The notes below the pieces were generated by a model that was not told the origin of the DNA, did not search any database, and was given only the letters and a program-made list of their open reading frames with translations. From positions 20,543 through 84,542 of the IMG/VR virus record IMGVR_UViG_3300025274_001348: 64,000 nt of DNA. The stretch is one strand, 5' to 3'. This DNA comes from a virus. The translations under genes were made by a program, and so were the position numbers. Position 1 is the first letter of the stretch. The number at the start of each line of letters is the position of its first letter. Positions 5,977 through 20,768 of the stretch are shown here, piece by piece.

Positions 5977-6048
5977 GCCCCCGTAGTTCAATGGTTAGAA
6001 CGCCGTTCTTATAAAGCGGTAACGATAGTTCGACTCTATCCGGGGGTA
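5977..6048 (+). tRNA. tRNA-Ile (anticodon UAU)
   Basis: Cloverleaf: GCCCCCG/CGGGGGT acceptor, GTTC/GAAC D-stem, CCGTT-CTTATAA-AGCGG anticodon arm, GATAG-TTCGACT-CTATC T-arm, discriminator A, CCA not encoded. Confidence 0.92.
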
Positions 6049-6109
6049 CTTAATCTGTTGGAAAGATGTCTCAGTAAAAACACCACGATTAAGATTAGCA
6101 GGATTTAAA

Positions 6110-7161: not shown

Positions 7162-7496
7162 GGGGGCGATTGGCTTCGACTGGTAGTGGAGATAATAGTT
7201 GCATGGAGTGGTTGGTCAGTTGGCCACTATAAAAGCTGACCAAAAAGTAATTGCCGAAAAGCAATTCGCGTTGGCTGCCTAGAGTAGTCAGGGGTTGCAC
7301 AAACCTTTTTATCCAATTGTGCTGACTCCGATAATCGGATAGGGATGGCTAACCCAAAAATAACGCCTGATGACCATAATGGTCTGATGATGGTCAATCC
7401 ATCTAGTTTTGTCTGCTGTGCGATAACAACAGACTAACCATGTAGAAGTTATTGTTTAAGCTATACAGGACGCGGGTTCGATTCCCGCCGCCTCCA
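7162..7496 (+). ncRNA. ssrA: tmRNA; tag (A)AEKQFALAA* at 7253-7282
   Basis: 5' GGGGGCG pairs with 3' CGCCTCC-A with a G3.U70 pair; TTCGAC near the 5' end; GCGGG-TTCGATT-CCCGC T-arm; tag ORF ends ALAA-stop. Confidence 0.95.
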
Positions 7497-8195: not shown

Positions 8196-8601
8196 TAAGT
8201 CTGTCCAAATAGCCTGTCAACTTTTTCCTGAGCGATATGAGAATACACAAAGCTGTAAGGCTTTTCATTTTGCTTTTCTGTGGAAAAAGAACAGGCTTAT
8301 TTCTATTGGCCAGAACTATGCAGATAAGCCGTGCGCTAAAGCATTATACTTTGCGAAAAGATTTAATACAAAACGCCGCATTAAATATCCCTACATTCAC
8401 GCTGAGATCAATGCGGTACAAAAGGTGTGGGGAAAATCCCAGATAGATAATTCGTTCAGCTTGGTTTCTCTCAGAGTGTCTAGAGATTGTGTTTTAAGAA
8501 ACGCCAAGCCTTGTAAAGATTGTCAAACCGTATTGTCTGCTATCGGAGTAGGTGACATTTGGTGGTCGAATAAAATTGGAGAGGTTGTATGTGTGGAATA
8601 A
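8173..8601 (+). CDS. Zn-dependent nucleoside/nucleic-acid deaminase superfamily protein
   Basis: IHAEINA ... AKPCKDC motif. Confidence 0.8.
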   Translation: MINQKNIDKSVQIACQLFPERYENTQSCKAFHFAFLWKKNRLISIGQNYADKPCAKALYFAKRFNTKRRIKYPYIHAEINAVQKVWGKSQIDNSFSLVSLRVSRDCVLRNAKPCKDCQTVLSAIGVGDIWWSNKIGEVVCVE

Positions 8602-10373
8602 TAGGATGTATTGGAACAGATACTATAGACACAGTAATCACAGGCATGAGGCGAATGGAATACCGTGGCTATGATAGCTATGGATTCTGTGCCTTCAAAA
8701 ATGATTCCAAATTTCTCTACAAAGATGTTGGGCTGGTATCTAGAAATACAAATCTCAATGGCTATTCCCATGCACTAAGGGGCTATACTTCTGCAATAGG
8801 TCATACCAGATGGGCAACTCATGGCGAGGTCACAAAAGAAAATGCTCATCCACAGTATGACGAACAAGAAACTATATTTGTTGTTCACAATGGTACGGTA
8901 GATAATTCTCCATCTGATATGTTGGATACGCAGTATATAGTTCAGCAATTAAAACTACGCCTTACCAAACACTGGATGACCGTCAAAAGCCCAGACCGTT
9001 TTACAGAACCCCTGCGAGAACAAGTCCCACTAACACCAGAAGACTATCTTCTCACGGTCAATGCAGTAACACAAAAACTAGAAGGTGATAATGCATTCCT
9101 AGTGTCCTTCTCAAGCCTGCCAGATTATATTTTCTGTGCCACCAAAGGCTCTAAGTCACTGTTAGTTACAGATAATGGACACGTTAGCAGCGATTCGTAT
9201 GCGATATCGGGCAAGGCGAAAGAGGCTCGAAGAATTAAGAACTCTGTGGTGTGCTTATCTTCCAAGGGGATAATATCTAGTGTGAAACCGTTTAGCTCAT
9301 CTGCGAAGATAGAAACAGTGCCAGAGCAACAGGAACATAAATTATCTGAGCCTCACTTCATGCTGCAAGAGATTAAAGAACAATACTCTCTTATGGAGGA
9401 TATGGGTAATTATCCTATGTACCATCCTCCGTTTCGGCCAGAGAGATTAAACCTGATTGGGTGTGGAAGTAGCTACTATGCAGCTATGTGGGCAAAGGTT
9501 TGGTTTGAGACGATTGCAAGGATTCCCACTACCGTAACTTATGGAAGTGAAGCCTTCAATCTCACTCTTAAAGACCCAAACGCAACCGACATCTACATAA
9601 GCCAAAGCGGAGAAACTAAAGATATTATTCGTGCATCCCGTGATGCTAAGTCAGACAGCGTTTTTGTAGTTACAAACAATATTAATTCCCACCTAGGAAA
9701 TTCTTTCTTTCACACAATTGATATTGGCGCAAACATTGAACGAGGAGTTGCCGCTACTAAAACCTTTACTCTAACCTGTTATGCGCTATGGGAGCTTGCT
9801 TGGCACTGGTCATCTGAATCTGAAGAAAACGAACTTAAAGTGTTAGACTACCAAGACGCCCTAGCCGAAGGAATTAAGCATGTGCTTGATCGTGAACAAA
9901 CCGTAGCGACTATTGCAAAGATGATAGCCCAGTATGACAACGCTCTATTCTTAGGTAGACATTGGGACTACCCAATAGCCTTAGAGGGCGCACTTAAGTT
10001 AAAGGAAGTTAGTTACATTCACGCAGAGGGTATGCCAGCAGCAGAAATGAAGCATGGACCCATCGCCTTGGTGGATGAAAAGACTCCAAGCATATTTACT
10101 GTTACCGGCTCTTTCGACATAGACACAATTATTTCTAACATGAGAGAGGTTAAATCCAGAAACGGAAAAGTGTTTGCTGTTGTTAGTCCTGTAAACTATG
10201 ACAGAGTAAAAGAAGTTGCAGACTGGACTTTCCGAACATGCGATATTCACGGTGTGGCAATGCAGCCACTTGTAGCAAATGTTGTCCTACAGTTACTTGC
10301 GTATCACGTAGCTGTTGAAAAAGGACTTAACCCTGACCGCCCCCGTAACCTAGCCAAGAGTGTAACCGTATAA
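8589..10373 (+). CDS. glmS: Glutamine--fructose-6-phosphate aminotransferase
   Basis: MCGIIG, EYRGYDS, GHTRWATHG, HNG, SQSGET, ALEGALKLKEVSYIHAEG, PRNLAKSVTV. Confidence 0.96.
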   Translation: MCGIIGCIGTDTIDTVITGMRRMEYRGYDSYGFCAFKNDSKFLYKDVGLVSRNTNLNGYSHALRGYTSAIGHTRWATHGEVTKENAHPQYDEQETIFVVHNGTVDNSPSDMLDTQYIVQQLKLRLTKHWMTVKSPDRFTEPLREQVPLTPEDYLLTVNAVTQKLEGDNAFLVSFSSLPDYIFCATKGSKSLLVTDNGHVSSDSYAISGKAKEARRIKNSVVCLSSKGIISSVKPFSSSAKIETVPEQQEHKLSEPHFMLQEIKEQYSLMEDMGNYPMYHPPFRPERLNLIGCGSSYYAAMWAKVWFETIARIPTTVTYGSEAFNLTLKDPNATDIYISQSGETKDIIRASRDAKSDSVFVVTNNINSHLGNSFFHTIDIGANIERGVAATKTFTLTCYALWELAWHWSSESEENELKVLDYQDALAEGIKHVLDREQTVATIAKMIAQYDNALFLGRHWDYPIALEGALKLKEVSYIHAEGMPAAEMKHGPIALVDEKTPSIFTVTGSFDIDTIISNMREVKSRNGKVFAVVSPVNYDRVKEVADWTFRTCDIHGVAMQPLVANVVLQLLAYHVAVEKGLNPDRPRNLAKSVTV

Positions 10374-10630
10374 TGCCTAAATACTATGTAGAGACCGGAA
10401 CCCTGCAAGAAATAGTGGAATCTAATACTCCTTTTGATGCCTGCGTGAGGGCTGTACGCAGGGCTACTAATGAATATCTGGAGGGTGGAGAGAATGTTAC
10501 CTTGGGGGAATCGTTTATTGTTAACCAAAAGGGTTTCCCCTCCAATCGTGAACCCTTCGCTCTTGATACTGCAAATGACACTATGGTGTCTACGAGTCGT
10601 ATTATAGAGGCTCTTGAAGATGGATCTTAA
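10373..10630 (+). CDS. Hypothetical protein
   Basis: TAATG coupling to glmS. Confidence 0.6.
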   Translation: MPKYYVETGTLQEIVESNTPFDACVRAVRRATNEYLEGGENVTLGESFIVNQKGFPSNREPFALDTANDTMVSTSRIIEALEDGS

Positions 10631-10766
10631 CGGCAAAAGAGGCAAATTTGAAAGATGGCTAGATCTTCATAATCATAAGATGGAATTGATGAGAACATCG
10701 TTTTCATTTGTTGCAGCAATCACTGGTATATTGGTATTATTAAAGGTGTTCGGATTTATGGACTAA
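10620..10766 (+). CDS. Small membrane protein (48 aa)
   Basis: MDLNGKRGKFERWLD...SFSFVAAITGILVLLKVFGFMD; one C-terminal TM helix. Confidence 0.5.
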   Translation: MDLNGKRGKFERWLDLHNHKMELMRTSFSFVAAITGILVLLKVFGFMD

Positions 10767-10767
10767 A

Positions 10768-10853
10768 GCCCTGTTGCAGCCGACATGAGCCTTCTAAGCT
10801 CATCCCCTGAATGTGTCGGATGGAGGGGTAGGGTTCGATTCCCCAGCGGGGTA
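10768..10853 (+). tRNA. Atypical D-arm-less tRNA-like RNA, anticodon UCU (Arg)
   Basis: GCCCTGTTG/CAGCGGGGT acceptor, ATGAGC-CTTCTAA-GCTCAT anticodon arm, CCCCT/AGGGG long variable arm, GGG-TTCGATT-CCC T-arm; only 8 nt where the D-arm should be. Confidence 0.7.
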
Positions 10854-10873
10854 CTCATATAAGGAGAGTTAAT

Positions 10874-11290
10874 ATGACAATGGGTGGAAGCGAAAAGAGA
10901 TTAATAGTAGACTGCGACGGAGTTATAGCCGATAAAGACCACGGTGGTATATATGCGAATGCTGGCCCCTTACAGCACGGTATCGACCAAGTAAATAAAC
11001 TGTATGACATGGGATATGAAATCGTACTATATACAGCGAGATATGGAGATCGAGAAAAGGGTAACATAAATAGACAATATGAACGTGGATATGTAGAATG
11101 GGTGAAGTGGCTGAAGGATCACGGTGTTAAATATCACCACGCATTTATGGGCAAGATTGCTGGAGTTCTCTATATAGACGATAAGGCTGCTAGAGTCAAC
11201 AGTGATAGTGAAGACGGGTGGGAAGACGTGTGGAAGGAAATAGATGACCTTACAGACAGAGATAGATACGGGAGGAAAATCGTGTCATGA
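10874..11290 (+). CDS. HAD-superfamily phosphatase (capsule-biosynthesis phosphatase-like)
   Basis: VDCDGVI, YTAR, GK...YIDDKA. Confidence 0.85.
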   Translation: MTMGGSEKRLIVDCDGVIADKDHGGIYANAGPLQHGIDQVNKLYDMGYEIVLYTARYGDREKGNINRQYERGYVEWVKWLKDHGVKYHHAFMGKIAGVLYIDDKAARVNSDSEDGWEDVWKEIDDLTDRDRYGRKIVS

Positions 11291-11787
11291 AACTAGATCA
11301 TATTGCCTACAGGGTAAAAGGTAGACATGAGGCAGCAGAGTTCTTTTATTCGATGTTCGGTTACGAGTTTGGAACCGAATTTGATGTAGAATTTGATGAT
11401 GGCTCCAAGGCCGAATGTTATGTCCTCCTTCCACCAATAAATCCATCTATTTTAGTTCGTGAAGGACCGGAGATATTTATATCTGACGGAAGTCCCGGCT
11501 CAATTGTCGGGGATTGGGTTGAGGCTAGGGGTGGTATTGGTGGTATACATCATATAGCTTATAAGGTAAGAGATATAGACGCTGTTGTTGATGAATGGAA
11601 GAAACAAGGCATTGTCGAGTTTCTTACAGACGATGTAATCGAATGTCCAGACGACGACCTTCGGCAAATTTTTACTAAACCCTTGGAATACGTAGGTGGA
11701 ATAATTATCGAACTGATTGAAAGAGGATCTAAAGGATTCTGTGAAAAGTCAGTTAAGGACTTAATGAATAGCACGAAAGGATTATAA
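11287..11787 (+). CDS. VOC/glyoxalase-fold protein resembling the catalytic C-domain of HPPD
   Basis: LDHIA, GIHHIAY, RQIFTKP, IELIER, KGF (His-His-Glu triad pattern). Confidence 0.75.
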   Translation: MKLDHIAYRVKGRHEAAEFFYSMFGYEFGTEFDVEFDDGSKAECYVLLPPINPSILVREGPEIFISDGSPGSIVGDWVEARGGIGGIHHIAYKVRDIDAVVDEWKKQGIVEFLTDDVIECPDDDLRQIFTKPLEYVGGIIIELIERGSKGFCEKSVKDLMNSTKGL

Positions 11788-13271
11788 TGGGAACTTATAC
11801 GATTACTCAAGGATTACACTATGTCAATGGTCAATGGACCGGAGGAAGCCAACAGGCGGCGTTTGACAGCAAGAATCCAGCAACAAAAGAAATTATAGGA
11901 TCTTTTCCTCAAGCCACTCAGTCAGAAGTTGACTCCACATACCATTTTGCAAGAGATTCTTTTTACGGGTGGAGGGAGTATGGCAGGGTGCGACGAGCCG
12001 AATATTTCCTCAAGCTAGCTAGCCTGATCGAAAAAAGAAAAGATGAAATTGCAAAAATGATCAGCATCGAAACGGGTAAGGTATACAACGAGTCTGTTGC
12101 AGAAGTGAACGAAGCTCTACACATGGCACAATATGCATTTAGTACAGGGAGGATGCCTTATGGTGAAGCAATCGCGTCAGAACTACCTGAAAAAGATGCT
12201 TACATGCTTCGCAAACCAAAGGGTGTGGTCGCAATTGTCGCTCCTTTTAACTTTCCTTTTGCTATTGGTGGTTTTTGGTGTGCCGCACCTGCTTTGGTTG
12301 AGGGAAATACTGTCATACTAAAACCAAGTGAAGATACCCCTTTAGTGGGACAATTAACGGCAGAACTATATCACGAAGCTGGATTTCCACCGGGAGTATT
12401 CAATCTACTTCACGGTGACGGCGAAGTTGGAGATATGTTGATTCATCAGGATGTAGACCATGTATGTTTTACGGGAAGCGCCGATGTGGGCATGCACGTC
12501 AGAAAAGTTTGCGCTGAAAGTTGGCACAAGTCTTGTTCGTGTGAGATGGGTAGTAAGTCTGCTGTAATCATCCACGAAGATGCCAACTATGATATGGCTA
12601 TGGCTGCTTGTCTTGCTAGTGCATATAAACTTTCTGGACAAAGATGTGTGTCTGCCGGTAGGCTAATTGTTCATAGATCTTTATATCACCAGTTTGCAGA
12701 AGAATTTGCTGCTAGAAGTGCAATGCTAAAGACTGGCGATCCGTTTAATGAAAACACTTTCTACGGTCCACTGATAAATCGACAGGGGTTGGACAAGGTT
12801 ATGCACTTCAATAGCATTGTATTTAACGACAAGGACGTAGACGTGCTGCTTGCCGGGGTTAGAATTGTTGAAGACGGATTATTTATGACTCCTACGGTTT
12901 ATAAAACCGAATGGAAAGATGCTCCGTACCTAAAGAATGAAGTGTTTGGGCCTCATGTATCTATTATCCCCTATGATAGAGTTTCAGAAGCTATTAATAT
13001 TTATAACGATACTGATTACGGATTAGCTCTTGGAGTAGTAACCGAAAACTTTAAAGTTGCCAGAAGGGTTCGTAATGAATGTGATTTTGGTCTTGGTTAT
13101 TGGAATGGTGGTAGTATTGCGGCTGAGTCTCATCTTGGATTCGGAGGAGTAAAGAAATCTGGAAATGGGCAACCTAGCGCTGCTCGTACTTTTAGATCTG
13201 TTACTCACGAAGTTGCTTGGACCGTCAATCATGGAGATACTCTTAACTTTCCTCAAGGCATGAACTCTTGA
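11787..13271 (+). CDS. Aldehyde dehydrogenase (candidate P6C/P5C semialdehyde dehydrogenase)
   Basis: PFNFP, KPSEDTP, FTGS, EMGSK, GQRC, EVFGP, FGGVKKSG. Confidence 0.93.
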   Translation: MGTYTITQGLHYVNGQWTGGSQQAAFDSKNPATKEIIGSFPQATQSEVDSTYHFARDSFYGWREYGRVRRAEYFLKLASLIEKRKDEIAKMISIETGKVYNESVAEVNEALHMAQYAFSTGRMPYGEAIASELPEKDAYMLRKPKGVVAIVAPFNFPFAIGGFWCAAPALVEGNTVILKPSEDTPLVGQLTAELYHEAGFPPGVFNLLHGDGEVGDMLIHQDVDHVCFTGSADVGMHVRKVCAESWHKSCSCEMGSKSAVIIHEDANYDMAMAACLASAYKLSGQRCVSAGRLIVHRSLYHQFAEEFAARSAMLKTGDPFNENTFYGPLINRQGLDKVMHFNSIVFNDKDVDVLLAGVRIVEDGLFMTPTVYKTEWKDAPYLKNEVFGPHVSIIPYDRVSEAINIYNDTDYGLALGVVTENFKVARRVRNECDFGLGYWNGGSIAAESHLGFGGVKKSGNGQPSAARTFRSVTHEVAWTVNHGDTLNFPQGMNS

Positions 13272-13272
13272 A

Positions 13273-14076
13273 ATGAATAATATTCTTGTATGTCCACCCA
13301 CCTTTTATGGCGTTAACTATGAAATTAACGCTTGGATGGATGCAAGTATGGATGTTGATTACAAGAAAGCAGATTTACAATGGCTGAAGATGTGCGACAG
13401 GCTTATAAGGTCCGGGGGGTATCTCAAATATATAGATCCTCATTCAGATTATCCAGACATGGTCTTTACTGCTAACGCAGGTTTTGTGCATGGTAAAACT
13501 GTGATATTGTCTAACAATAGACATAAAGAGCGTCAAGGAGAAAGCCCGTTATTTAAGCAATGGTTTCTAGATCACGGGTATAGGGTCATAGAGCTTCCTA
13601 AACACATCTTTTTTGAAGGAGCAGCCGACGCCATATTTATAAACGATGTTTTGTTTATGGGATATGGTTTTAGAACAAGCAAAGAGGCTCATTCAATAAT
13701 TGCAAACGTATTTAATGTCGAATATGTTTCCTGTGAATTAGTTGATCCACATTTTTATCATTTAGACACCTGTTTTTTCCATATGAAGGATAGGGTCATT
13801 TATTACAGAGAAGCCTTCTCTCATAAATCAATTGAAGGAGCCATAGAAAAATTGATAGAAACATGTCTATTTACGCAGGTGCCATTAGACATACTAAACG
13901 TGGCTGAATCTCAAGCTAAACAATTTATATGTAACAGTATAGAAATTGATAATAACATCGTCACTCCTTCTGTTGATTGTGACGATACGTTTGGTAACCA
14001 TAGTGTATTCATGTGTGATATGTCAGAATTTATGAAGGCTGGAGGAGCAACAAAATGTCTAACTCTCAAGCTATAA
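13273..14076 (+). CDS. Amidinotransferase/DDAH-superfamily guanidino hydrolase
   Basis: YEINAWM, PDMVFTANAG, FEGAAD, FYHLDTCF, GGATKCLTL (Cys-His-Asp triad). Confidence 0.9.
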   Translation: MNNILVCPPTFYGVNYEINAWMDASMDVDYKKADLQWLKMCDRLIRSGGYLKYIDPHSDYPDMVFTANAGFVHGKTVILSNNRHKERQGESPLFKQWFLDHGYRVIELPKHIFFEGAADAIFINDVLFMGYGFRTSKEAHSIIANVFNVEYVSCELVDPHFYHLDTCFFHMKDRVIYYREAFSHKSIEGAIEKLIETCLFTQVPLDILNVAESQAKQFICNSIEIDNNIVTPSVDCDDTFGNHSVFMCDMSEFMKAGGATKCLTLKL

Positions 14077-15284
14077 ATACCTTGTCTCAGTACATTCTGA
14101 CCGATGGTTTTCATGTTGTTGTTGACCTAGATAAAAGTCAAGGTTCTTGGATAGTAGATGCTGAAAATGGAAAGAAGTATTTAGACTGTTATTCCCAATT
14201 TGCTAGTCAACCTCTAGGCTGGAATCATCCCGCTCTAATCAACGCCCAAGAGGAACTAGGGCGCGTAGCTATGCACAAGTTGGCAAATAGTGACATGTAT
14301 TCAAAGCCCTATGTTGAATTCGTAGAAAAATTTGCGGACATCACAAGAGATTTTAGACACTACTTTTTTGTTGATGGTGGGACACTAGCGGTAGAAAATG
14401 CATTAAAAGCTGCTTTTGATTGGAAGGCGCAAAAACTAGGATATACAATAGACATGAGTCCCAGCCTAAATGAAGCTCTTGCCAATAAACTTGATGTTAT
14501 ACATTTTAGCAATGCTTTTCACGGAAGAAGCGGATATTCAATGTCTATTACAAATACAGATCCTAATAAAACCAGATGGTTTCCATCCTTTAATTGGACC
14601 CCTGTTAATGACCCGTCTGATATAGAGCATAAAATGCACGGTGATGTAGCGGCAATAATTATAGAGCCGATACAAGGTGAAGGAGGAGATATACACTTTA
14701 ACAGAGCGGCGTTCCGGCACCTTAGAAAAATGGCATATAAGTATGACGCAATGTTAATATTTGACGAAGTTCAAACCGGGTTAGGACTTACAGGAAAAAT
14801 GTGGGGGTACAAACATTTTAGTGGCGTAATGCCTGATATGATTTGTTTTGGTAAGAAGACTCAGGTGTGTGGCTTTTGTTGCACAAATAGAATCAATGAA
14901 GTTCCCGACAACGTATTCACCGTCTCCTCCAGAATTAACTCTACATGGGGAGGAAATATTGTGGACATGGTTAGATTCTGCCATATCATAGATGCAATAG
15001 AAGAAAATAATCTTGTAGAGAATGCAAAAACTATAGGTGAATACCTCCTCGGAAAGTTGGTTATTGTAGATGGCATTTCAAACGTCAGAGGCAGAGGCTT
15101 AATGATAGCCTTTGATTTGTCTAACGAATCAGAACGAGACAAAATGATGGAATTGCTATCCGAAAATATGTTGGTTCTAAAATGTGGCAAGAAATCTATA
15201 AGACTAAGACCTCATCTTACATTCTCAAAAGAGGATGCTGATTTTGCCCATTCCTACATAGAGAAAGCGGCGGGGGAACTATGA
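14055..15284 (+). CDS. lat: L-lysine 6-aminotransferase (class III PLP)
   Basis: FFVDGGTLAVENALKAAFDWK, AFHGRSGY, EPIQGEGGD, DEVQTG, FGKKTQVCG, RINSTWGG, all characteristic of Lat. Confidence 0.9.
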   Translation: MSNSQAINTLSQYILTDGFHVVVDLDKSQGSWIVDAENGKKYLDCYSQFASQPLGWNHPALINAQEELGRVAMHKLANSDMYSKPYVEFVEKFADITRDFRHYFFVDGGTLAVENALKAAFDWKAQKLGYTIDMSPSLNEALANKLDVIHFSNAFHGRSGYSMSITNTDPNKTRWFPSFNWTPVNDPSDIEHKMHGDVAAIIIEPIQGEGGDIHFNRAAFRHLRKMAYKYDAMLIFDEVQTGLGLTGKMWGYKHFSGVMPDMICFGKKTQVCGFCCTNRINEVPDNVFTVSSRINSTWGGNIVDMVRFCHIIDAIEENNLVENAKTIGEYLLGKLVIVDGISNVRGRGLMIAFDLSNESERDKMMELLSENMLVLKCGKKSIRLRPHLTFSKEDADFAHSYIEKAAGEL

Positions 15285-16123
15285 ACATTCAAACCGTGGG
15301 AATCATTGGTCAGGGATTTGTAGGAAGCGCATTGGGTTGCGCCTTTGCTCAACATTATAAGGTGTATACTTACGATAAAATGCTTACAGATCTATCCACA
15401 CATAAAAGCGTGCATGGGCTGTCCAGAGATTGCGATTTGCTTTTTGTCTGTGTCCCAACCCCAATGAGGGAAGATGGGTCTTGCGATATCTCAATAGTCA
15501 AAGAAGTTGTTCAAGAAGCCTGTAGCACCGGAAGAAGAAACATAATTGCCATTAAATCCACGGTCCCTCCTAATACTACTAAGACGTTACAAGAGCTATG
15601 TCAAGATTCTCAAATAGTTTTTAACCCGGAGTTTCTACTTGAAAGAAACGCTGAAGAAGATTTTCGCAACACTAGTCGAGTCATTTTAGGTGGCCCTAGA
15701 CCAGCAACAACTAGGCTGAAACAATTCTATTCAAAAATCTTTCCTAATGCCCATATCATAAAAACCGACTCCACTATAGCAGAGATGGTTAAGTATCTTA
15801 CTAATTCATTTCTTGCGGTTAAAGTTTCATTCGCTAATGAAATGTACGCCATCTGCAAAAATCTAGATATAGACTACGACAAGGTAGCTGAATATGCCTT
15901 GCACGATGACCGTCTAGGAAATACACACTGGGCCGTTCCCGGTCCCGATGGTCACTATGGATTTGGAGGAAGCTGTTTTCCAAAAGATATAAATGCGTTA
16001 ATGCATCTCGCACAAACTCTGTGTATAAAAGCCAACACAATAGAAGGAGCTTGGAACACTAATCTCATGGCTAGGCCAGAGAAGGACTGGGAAACTCTCA
16101 AAGGTAGGGCAGTAATCGAGTAA
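15281..16123 (+). CDS. UDP-glucose/GDP-mannose dehydrogenase family (no C-terminal domain)
   Basis: GIIGQGFVG, CVPTP, KSTVPP, FNPEFL, AEMVKY, GFGGSCFPKD; only 280 aa. Confidence 0.88.
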   Translation: MNIQTVGIIGQGFVGSALGCAFAQHYKVYTYDKMLTDLSTHKSVHGLSRDCDLLFVCVPTPMREDGSCDISIVKEVVQEACSTGRRNIIAIKSTVPPNTTKTLQELCQDSQIVFNPEFLLERNAEEDFRNTSRVILGGPRPATTRLKQFYSKIFPNAHIIKTDSTIAEMVKYLTNSFLAVKVSFANEMYAICKNLDIDYDKVAEYALHDDRLGNTHWAVPGPDGHYGFGGSCFPKDINALMHLAQTLCIKANTIEGAWNTNLMARPEKDWETLKGRAVIE

Positions 16124-20309: not shown

Positions 20310-20768
20310 ATGCAGGATATGCCCCATGTTGTTGGTATAGATGGGTTTCTCGGTTTTGTCTATGTCATGATAGCCATTATCGGTTTTTGGTATGGTGTTT
20401 GCCAAGGATTTCGCTCTATGAAAGAACCCTTATATATCACCCTGACAGAAGAAGAAAAGGATCACACACCTTTCTGTAATGACGATTGGGACACGATTTG
20501 TCGATCAGCTATTGAAGGAGCAAAAGATGGCAATCATCGTGACAGACAATGGGTTATGGAAAACGTCATCAGTACCCATGAGGTAGATAAGGAGGAACCG
20601 GAAGACGAGAAGCCCAAGACGAGTGAGCAAGTAATTAATGATACTATTGCAACACTCAGATCTATGGGTCATAAAGCTGCCGAAGCTAAGAAGCTCGTTA
20701 TGGATCTTGCTTCTAAGAAGGTTTACCACAGTGCCGAAGAGTTGTTAGTAGATGTATATAAAAGGTAA
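20310..20768 (+). CDS. Membrane protein with C-terminal RuvA-domain-III-like helical motif
   Basis: N-terminal TM helix; DTIATLRSMGHKAAEAKKLV...AEELL. Confidence 0.55.
   Translation: MQDMPHVVGIDGFLGFVYVMIAIIGFWYGVCQGFRSMKEPLYITLTEEEKDHTPFCNDDWDTICRSAIEGAKDGNHRDRQWVMENVISTHEVDKEEPEDEKPKTSEQVINDTIATLRSMGHKAAEAKKLVMDLASKKVYHSAEELLVDVYKR

Follow-up and report, generated by a model that had tools for sequence, protein, structure and literature searches.

A candidate phage-borne tRNA-Arg(UCU) with a re-threaded D stem, from a family often missed by standard gene finders

Background

Can an RNA that has no D hairpin work as an elongator transfer RNA (tRNA) in bacterial translation? The question is raised by an 86-nt element with the anticodon UCU, located at positions 10768-10853 (+ strand) of a 64,000-nt stretch of viral DNA (positions 20,543 to 84,542 of IMG/VR virus record IMGVR_UViG_3300025274_001348), which was analyzed here as a whole and is called the window. 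A preliminary description, prepared from the sequence alone, had presented the element as a D-arm-less tRNA-like RNA and offered three readings of it: a tRNA of new architecture that decodes AGA, an anticodon-nuclease decoy or an Arg-sensing leader. To our knowledge, the tRNAs of bacterial translation are described in reviews as cloverleaves with modest variation (8/5, 8/4, 9/3, long variable arms). The comparative evidence assembled below suggests, with a probability of roughly 0.77, that the element is a functional AGA-decoding elongator tRNA-Arg(UCU) with a re-threaded D stem, and that it belongs to a widespread, mostly phage-borne family of such rewired genes.

Results and discussion

Architecture of the element

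The sequence and parts of the element were read directly and are as first described. The acceptor stem consists of the 9-nt 5' strand GCCCUGUUG (10768-10776) and the 3' strand CAGCGGGGU (10844-10852), forming nine pairs that begin with G10768 opposite U10852 and include three G.U pairs. The anticodon arm (10785-10803) has a 6-bp stem (AUGAGC/GCUCAU) and the loop CUUCUAA with UCU at 10793-10795; the T arm (10831-10843) has a 3-bp stem (GGG/CCC) and the loop UUCGAUU; and the discriminator A (10853) is followed by CU, with no encoded CCA. The traits of canonical tRNA that are kept include a 7-nt anticodon loop with U33 and a purine at position 37, the T arm, a 12-bp (9+3) acceptor/T stack and the discriminator. 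The 5' and 3' ends are the same as those of the tRNA-Ile gene of the window (GCCCCCG...CGGGGGUACU), a resemblance that had been pointed out before.

The D stem-loop is missing: only 8 nt, CAGCCGAC, unable to pair with themselves, lie between the acceptor and anticodon stems. They comprise a 3-nt connector, CAG (10777-10779), and a strand termed X, CCGAC (10780-10784), which abuts the anticodon stem and is the exact complement of a strand termed X', GUCGG (10815-10819), on the far side of the anticodon arm. The anticodon arm is followed in turn by CCCC (10804-10807), the connector UGAAUGU (10808-10814), strand X', a D-loop-like motif AUGGA (10820-10824) and GGGG (10825-10828), with UA separating the last of these from the T arm. 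CCCC and GGGG pair to form a small second helix that crosses the long-range X/X' helix, producing a pseudoknot.

Both helices had been drawn one pair longer in the preliminary description. The five pairs CCGAC/GUCGG stand, and the sixth, A10785-U10814, is given up, as it competes with A10785-U10803 of the anticodon stem, the equivalent of which is A-U in 27 of 28 members of the subfamily introduced below. Similarly, CCCC/GGGG is retained from the proposed variable arm CCCCT/AGGGG without its fifth pair, U10808-A10824, which would consume the A of a conserved GGA.

A family with a covarying long-range helix

Viral contigs were searched with the pattern CTTCTAA, 25-45 nt, GGTTCGATTCC, which returned at least 119 loci. 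Among the matches listed there were 58 distinct D-armless candidates, in 43 of which the last 5 nt before the anticodon stem were fully complementary to the variable region; no viral contig contained an exact match to the 23 nt at the 3' end of the window element itself. A covariance model (R1) was built from 27 seed sequences aligned in one register, the window element not being among them, with only the acceptor, anticodon and T stems specified as pairs and X/X' left out. R1 was run on the listed loci and the window at a cut-off of E <= 1e-10, giving 57 matches (46 distinct); the statistics that follow, up to the introduction of the subfamily, are from these 46 sequences. The window element scored 52.2 bits (E ~1e-13), and because the model was made from other sequences, its resemblance to the family can be said to exceed chance.

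The preliminary description had named covariation of CCGAC/GTCGG in related phages as a check, and such covariation was found, both here and in the 28-sequence set below. The X/X' helix, which the model did not specify, was paired in 95.7% of cells, and double changes occurred in 5/5 pairs; one of the pairs was CG in 17 sequences, UA in 10, GU in 9, AU in 5 and GC in 2. For comparison, the acceptor stem was paired in 97.8% and the anticodon stem in 94.9% of cells, and all 8 modelled acceptor pairs covaried. The structure as a whole was paired in 94.7% of cells versus 68.0% in shuffled sequences (0/500 shuffles reached the observed value), and sliding the partners against each other lowered pairing to 37-50%. 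The small second helix was paired in 76.1% of cells in a single fixed register, and no register was common to all subfamilies; by subfamily it was CC/GG, GGC/GCC, AGC/GCU, GAC/GUC or CCCC/GGGG. The connector before X' was A-rich in most members, GGA occurred at the same alignment position, two nt 3' of X', in 44 of the 46 (AUGGA of the window fits this), and CCA was encoded in 36. The acceptor/T stack totalled 12 bp, split 8/4 in most relatives and 9/3 in the subfamily of the window. Family members were also found in cellular genome assemblies, at 7 of the 80 pattern-matching loci searched (>=46 bits); the carriers were mostly metagenome-assembled genomes, along with one Brucella haematophila isolate.

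A second D-hairpin-less UCU type was observed at L105 3228-3305, L112 1016-1092, L057 6411-6488 and L113 9857-9932. It has ordinary 7/5 geometry, a short post-anticodon region (UAUCGG ... CCGUAAYGGA...) with ~3 complementary bases, and R1 scores of 39.5-43.7 bits.

The 9/3 subfamily of the window was collected with a separate pattern (AUGGAGG, 0-4 nt, AGGGUUCGAUUCCC), which found 4 viral and 39 metagenome loci; R1 gave 40 matches on these, 28 of them distinct, from marine and aquatic sources. Across the 28, 99.1% of cells were paired, with many double changes, and X/X' was 100% paired with double changes in 4/5 pairs, appearing as CCAGC/GCUGG, CCACC/GGUGG, CUUGC/GCAAG and CCCAC/GUGGG among other forms. 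The acceptor and anticodon stems varied widely from member to member, the anticodon stem covarying, and the connector before X was CAG, UAG or UCG. The T stem was invariant (GGG/CCC in 28/28), the discriminator was A in 22 and G in 6, and encoded CCA was found in 0/28. The 9/3 reading of the acceptor and T stems, which the earlier description had put forward, is borne out by G1.U in 28/28 members and by 9/9 acceptor pairs in 27, the remaining one (L118) having 8/9. In the nearest relative (L367), X/X' and the anticodon loop are the same as in the window and the small helix is CUCC/GGAG versus CCCC/GGGG, both strands having changed.

Detection by gene finders

ARAGORN called only tRNA-Ile(UAU) and a transfer-messenger RNA (tmRNA) in the window, and Rfam at gathering thresholds likewise reported those two, with no RF00005 match at the element. 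At loose thresholds the best Rfam match was tRNA-Sec (RF01852), which aligned end to end with 4 nt of the element in place of the model's 14-position D arm. Identity as tRNA-Sec was rejected on score (23.8 bits, gathering threshold 47) and on anticodon (UCU, not UCA). When the element and ordinary tRNA-Arg genes were aligned by MAFFT, the anticodon arm was misaligned, so that the D-loop-like appearance of the region 3' of the anticodon arm is a hint only. One rewired gene, at L110 798-890, is called by ARAGORN, as a 93-nt tRNA-Arg(tct); standard tools therefore miss rewired genes often, not always.

Ordinary and rewired genes in the same genomic slot

The surroundings of the element were compared in 53 viral-contig loci, 52 of them holding a homolog of the 138-aa gene immediately downstream (o138) and one recovered through the upstream GlmS-like gene. 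ARAGORN found an ordinary tRNA-Arg(tct) in 21 of the 53, ending no more than 78 nt before the homolog of the downstream gene in 15, and an R1 match was found in 0/53 of these loci from the closer relatives of the window. The gene order GlmS-like, o85, (o50), tRNA, o138, glyoxalase-like, aldehyde dehydrogenase is common to the window and L003, L004, L051/L055 and L052, and these relatives carry an ordinary tRNA-Arg(UCU) in the slot occupied by the element in the window (in L051/L055, L004 and L052 the ordinary gene comes after an o85 homolog). Six marine contigs at a greater distance (L340, L341, L347, L348, L363 and L376) have an o85 homolog of 31-38% identity with a rewired gene directly after it; no ordinary tRNA-Arg was detected in those loci. 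Since either form fills one and the same slot, the arrangement suggests that the ordinary and rewired genes would do the same job.

tRNA arrays and cultured phages

When a family member was compared with GenBank phages by blastn, 55 records were matched, belonging to phages of Acinetobacter (29), Vibrio (19), Aeromonas (2, phage AhSzw-1 among them), Escherichia (2), Pseudomonas (1) and Salmonella (1), with 1 more labelled simply 'phage'. Annotation was compared in a sample of 40 spread over the 55 records: at the match, these records showed no feature, showed a hypothetical protein or carried no annotation at all, and a tRNA was named in none of the 40. In E. coli phage Av-05 (KM190144.1, ~7394-7478; 88.9 bits) and Acinetobacter phage KARL-1 (MH713599.1, 109460-109544; 88.0 bits) the family member lies between ordinary tRNA genes and encodes CCA; ARAGORN misses both genes, and the tables of the two loci list no tRNA. 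Genome-wide, RF00005 matched 13 times in Av-05 (12 over the cut-off) and 7 times in KARL-1. Both genomes are complete, and an ordinary Arg tRNA was absent from the ARAGORN-named genes in their tRNA-cluster loci. A survey of 45 loci with distinct family members found the rewired gene to be the only UCU gene in arrays of 10-30 tRNAs in L068, L069, L071, L086, L145, L158, L103 and L081, and in L367 it rounds out a cluster whose other tRNA-Arg genes, all of the ordinary kind, have the anticodons CCU, UCG and CCG.

Several other genes were noted. At L068 3908-3997 the re-threaded layout occurs with the anticodon GUA (Tyr; CUCUAC/GUAGAG, small helix GGC/GCC), within an array of 30 tRNAs, none of them called as tRNA-Tyr by ARAGORN. 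Two rewired genes, CCU and then UCU, are in tandem at L190 ~1440-1630. Suppressor-type tRNA genes (CUA, UUA) are present in the same phage arrays, at L175 463-537, L096 6822-6906 and L111 9087-9158.

Arginine identity and codon demand

A scan that did not specify the anticodon, anchored on the end of X', AWGGA and the T loop, yielded 45 distinct segments, 34 having the rewired layout with UCU and 2 with CCU. The remaining 9 did not have the layout: 8 showed no detectable anticodon hairpin and 1 was spurious, and by eye they were ordinary tRNAs or unrelated sequences. G18 and G19 of tRNA dock on the T loop, and A20 and C35 are the main identity elements for arginyl-tRNA synthetase (ArgRS) in bacteria. 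The GGA following X' would correspond to G18-G19-A20.

AGA accounts for 395 of the 841 Arg codons (47%) in the 69 window open reading frames (ORFs), or 21 per 1000 codons. Aligned with relatives, the AGA codons of four window genes fall on Arg at 109 of 134 pairwise positions, of which 23 are CGN, and on Lys at 11, Ser at 0 and Ala at 0. From these alignments, AGA is read as Arg in the source phage. Neither a CCA-adding enzyme (PF01743) nor an ArgRS (PF00750) was found in the 84.5-kb record, which is 56% complete, so host enzymes would have to serve.

Proposed structure and use

In the structure proposed here the chain would run from the acceptor 5' strand through the connector, X, the anticodon arm, the small-helix 5' strand, an A-rich connector, X', GGA, the small-helix 3' strand and the T arm to the acceptor 3' strand. 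The 5-bp X/X' helix would enclose the anticodon arm and stack on the anticodon stem as a D stem does, which is feasible because X abuts the 5' anticodon strand and X' follows the 3' strand by way of a connector. X, before the anticodon arm, would play the part of positions 22-25, and X', after it, that of positions 10-13; compared with a cloverleaf, the segment made up of positions 10-13 and the D loop would have been shifted from before to after the segment made up of positions 22-25 and the anticodon arm. The pairing noticed in the preliminary description is thus kept, and its account of a variable loop supplying the missing half of the D stem gives way to a re-threaded D stem, which fits better. 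The GGA after X' would replace the D loop, with G18 and G19 contacting the T loop and A20, together with C35, providing ArgRS identity. The small helix would close the core as a pseudoknot, the chain passing through its 3' strand into the T arm, and the acceptor/T stack, kept at 12 bp, would retain the L shape. After excision from a long phage transcript, the RNA would acquire its CCA from a host enzyme and its arginine from the host ArgRS, and would then serve to decode AGA in a phage that has AGA as the main Arg codon. Three-dimensional equivalence, processing, Arg charging and use by the ribosome are what we infer from these comparisons.

A bolder version of this proposal, which we regard as speculative and on balance doubtful, would have phages use a natural non-cloverleaf tRNA whose permuted core may go back to a duplication and a deletion within a tRNA-Arg gene and is tolerated by the RNase P, CCA-adding enzyme, ArgRS, EF-Tu and ribosome of the host. 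This tRNA would have spread through many phage lineages, that of the window among them, in place of the ordinary tRNA-Arg(UCU), its re-threaded D region hiding it from a host defence or toxin that attacks or sequesters the ordinary form.

Weighing the alternatives

Several observations weigh against a functional re-threaded tRNA. The minimum-free-energy fold of the element is a rod (-30.4 kcal/mol, z = -0.2), a result that by itself favours neither side. By nearest-neighbour energies, the acceptor, anticodon and T stems alone reach -21.5 kcal/mol, the same stems with X/X' (the nested tRNA-like fold) -27.5 kcal/mol, which is above the rod, and the three stems with the small helix -26.9 kcal/mol; the full pseudoknotted fold is plausibly competitive with the rod. 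The T stem is only 3 bp, three acceptor pairs are G.U and CCA is not encoded. The element has no promoter or terminator of its own, a scan having given counts not above those of shuffled sequence, and two metatranscriptome runs with small shares of the window (X19 and X20) cover 10984-11083 only, with 5 and 10 differences, a stretch outside the element that bears on its expression in neither direction. The sampling was partly circular, in that the anticodon and T loops were fixed by the patterns, the 27 R1 seeds were chosen among pairing sequences and the subfamily pattern additionally fixed AUGGAGG. Acceptance of the altered core by EF-Tu, ArgRS, RNase P and the ribosome is an assumption. No other Arg tRNA was found in the 84.5-kb record, and whatever this 56%-complete record lacks could include an ordinary tRNA-Arg(UCU). 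Finally, the 176-kb viral contig L118 holds both a rewired gene (11188-11275) and, 60 nt away, an ordinary tRNA-Arg(UCU) (11336-11411), so the two forms are not strictly exclusive.

That last arrangement is one that might be expected if the RNA were a tRNA-like decoy or another non-translating RNA, one that retains the acceptor/T half and anticodon loop of tRNA-Arg(UCU) and might, for instance, titrate a host nuclease or enzyme acting on that tRNA. An altered core might spoil use by the ribosome or EF-Tu while sparing the anticodon loop, which is the same CUUCUAA as in ordinary phage tRNA-Arg, and charging of the rewired RNA with Arg is itself something we infer. Against this, the rewired gene replaces the ordinary one, and does not stand beside it, in the clade of the window and in both cultured phages examined; it is the sole UCU gene of large tRNA arrays; and the 12-bp stack, the discriminator, encoded CCA (in 36 of the 46) and GGA are conserved though a nuclease decoy would have no need of them. 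With nothing specific in favour of the anticodon-nuclease decoy raised in the preliminary description, we consider this explanation unlikely. More improbable still is recoding, in which the RNA would read AGA with another amino acid and the extra helix would be an identity element for another synthetase. The 9/3 geometry and extra helix do recall allo-tRNAs, some of which, according to the main text of PMC5389517, translated sense codons as Ser or Ala in E. coli, but AGA positions align with Arg and, less often, Lys, and never with Ser or Ala, the anticodon-free scan gave only Arg anticodons in the layout, and the A20-like A and C35 are kept.

A homolog with a normal D arm had been held to mark the element as a decayed pseudo-tRNA, and the nearest relatives do have a normal cloverleaf gene in the same slot; ARAGORN and Rfam, moreover, do not call the element. 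The decay reading itself does not follow, the element being one of a separately conserved family. Decay is disfavoured because all of its helices are intact and yet unlike in sequence the ordinary tRNA-Arg(UCU) of the relatives. The 28 subfamily members keep their pairing through double changes, they are not one recent clone, as the breadth of variation in their acceptor and anticodon stems indicates, and a covarying new helix is not a product of decay, all of which makes descent as a pseudogene of the ordinary gene very hard to credit. Least probable of all is a leader that senses arginine or tRNA and acts in cis on the downstream operon. The element does lie 20 nt 5' of the next ORF, as had been reported, in a cluster with pentein/DDAH-like, class III aminotransferase and aldehyde dehydrogenase genes; however, relatives carry an ordinary tRNA gene at the same position, family members occur in unrelated contexts, pure tRNA arrays included, and there is no terminator or anti-terminator at the element. 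The first suggestion of the preliminary description, a novel AGA-decoding architecture, is the one favoured by the comparative evidence (covariation, replacement in the slot, tRNA arrays and encoded CCA in most of the family).

Source DNA and genomic setting

The source record is 84.5 kb long with an estimated completeness of 56%. The window has 69 long ORFs, all on the + strand, and a G+C content of 41%. Distant homologs of the gene neighbouring the element are held by T4-like phages of enterobacteria and cyanobacteria, and the window DNA recurs across many marine metagenome runs; on these grounds the source is an uncultured marine myophage. At least half of the sampled words were contained in 17 runs, 6 of which are possible sources of the window DNA, and the element is spanned by a contig from an independent 2024 viral metagenome, so the DNA at the element is real; run X17 does not cover the element. 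A blastn search of GenBank phages with 1.1 kb around the element gave no match, and the clade of the window is accordingly without a cultured relative at the DNA level.

The next ORF, encoding the 138-aa protein, begins ~20 nt 3' of the element. The surrounding region (window 8589-16123) is a metabolic gene block encoding GlmS-like (SIS + amidotransferase), glyoxalase-like, aldehyde dehydrogenase, pentein/DDAH-like, class III aminotransferase and UDP-glucose dehydrogenase-like proteins, three of which we take to resemble enzymes of arginine succinyltransferase-type catabolism. The tmRNA gene of the window (7162-7496; Rfam 132.8 bits) is phage-borne and has the tag AEKQFALAA; the tags of relatives' tmRNAs are AEKNFALAA, AEKQYALAA, VENNFAIAA and AEHSFAIAA. 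The tRNA-Ile(UAU) is located at 5977-6049. A G1.U72 start, a discriminator A and the lack of encoded CCA are common to the ordinary tRNAs of the clade (window 5977-6049; L003 117-190; L004 2478-2552), and all 28 members of the rewired subfamily share with them G1.U72 and the absence of encoded CCA. Conservation of G1.U72 across a clade is unusual.

Implications

If the proposed structure is correct, the L shape of tRNA can be built from another order of strands, and the family would offer a natural test of what RNase P, ArgRS, EF-Tu, the modification enzymes and the ribosome really require, as well as a new scaffold for the engineering of orthogonal tRNAs. There is also an annotation blind spot: because ARAGORN and Rfam miss rewired genes, counts of phage tRNAs come out too low and phages are wrongly recorded as lacking AGA decoding. 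The family also poses the question why, in phages, it should be the tRNAs for the arginine codons AGA/AGG that take the rewired form.

Comparison with known systems

Like the element, allo-tRNAs divide a 12-bp acceptor branch as 9/3 or 8/4, have a lengthened anticodon stem and carry extra structure after the anticodon arm, and some of these 8/4 or 9/3 tRNAs occur in phages, according to the main text of Mukai et al. 2017 (PMC5389517). In that text they are given, unlike the element, a tRNA-Sec-like D stem-loop with a long stem and a tetraloop; the species it reports are Ser, His, Cys and Sec, and 'UCU' does not appear in it. Membership was rejected, the element sharing the 9/3 split and lacking the tRNA-Sec-like D stem-loop.

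The D-armless tRNA-Ser(UCU/GCU) of animal mitochondria likewise have no D hairpin and can carry UCU. As reviewed in PMC7609411 and PMC4013460, they differ in that their connector is short and flexible, with neither a covarying long-range helix nor GG-A, and they work with adapted mitochondrial factors, whereas the element is phage-borne and has a full T arm and T loop. This identity was rejected on the grounds that the element is on a phage contig and that its connector strand pairs and covaries with a distant strand.

Bacterial tRNA-Sec (RF01852) shares with the element a long acceptor stem, a 6-bp anticodon stem and an extra arm. The order of parts is also altered in the circularly permuted tRNA genes of the red alga Cyanidioschyzon merolae, in which the mature tRNA is reportedly a normal cloverleaf after processing and ligation; in the element, unlike those genes, the unusual order would be expected to persist in the mature RNA.

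The closest known relative is the ordinary bacterial and phage tRNA-Arg(UCU), a class I cloverleaf (RF00005) represented here by L003 117-190 and L004 2478-2552. The element shares with it the loop CUUCUAA, the T loop UUCGAxU, the 12-bp acceptor/T stack and the GGA motif, and with the ordinary tRNA-Arg(UCU) of its own clade also G1.U, the discriminator A, the absence of encoded CCA and the flanking genes. Unlike an ordinary tRNA-Arg, it is without a D hairpin; its D-stem-like strands flank the anticodon arm and GG-A comes after that arm; the anticodon stem is 6 bp, the acceptor/T split 9/3 and not 7/5, and an extra small helix creates a pseudoknot. Membership in the rewired family was judged by a covarying X/X' helix of at least 5 bp, GGA, a UCU or CCU anticodon and the R1 score, all of which were found in the element. 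In the full-text literature, supplements and subscription journals aside, no phage or bacterial tRNA that is D-hairpin-less, pseudoknotted or re-threaded was found described. Set against these systems, the element is very probably a functional tRNA-Arg(UCU) in which the D stem has been re-threaded around the anticodon arm.

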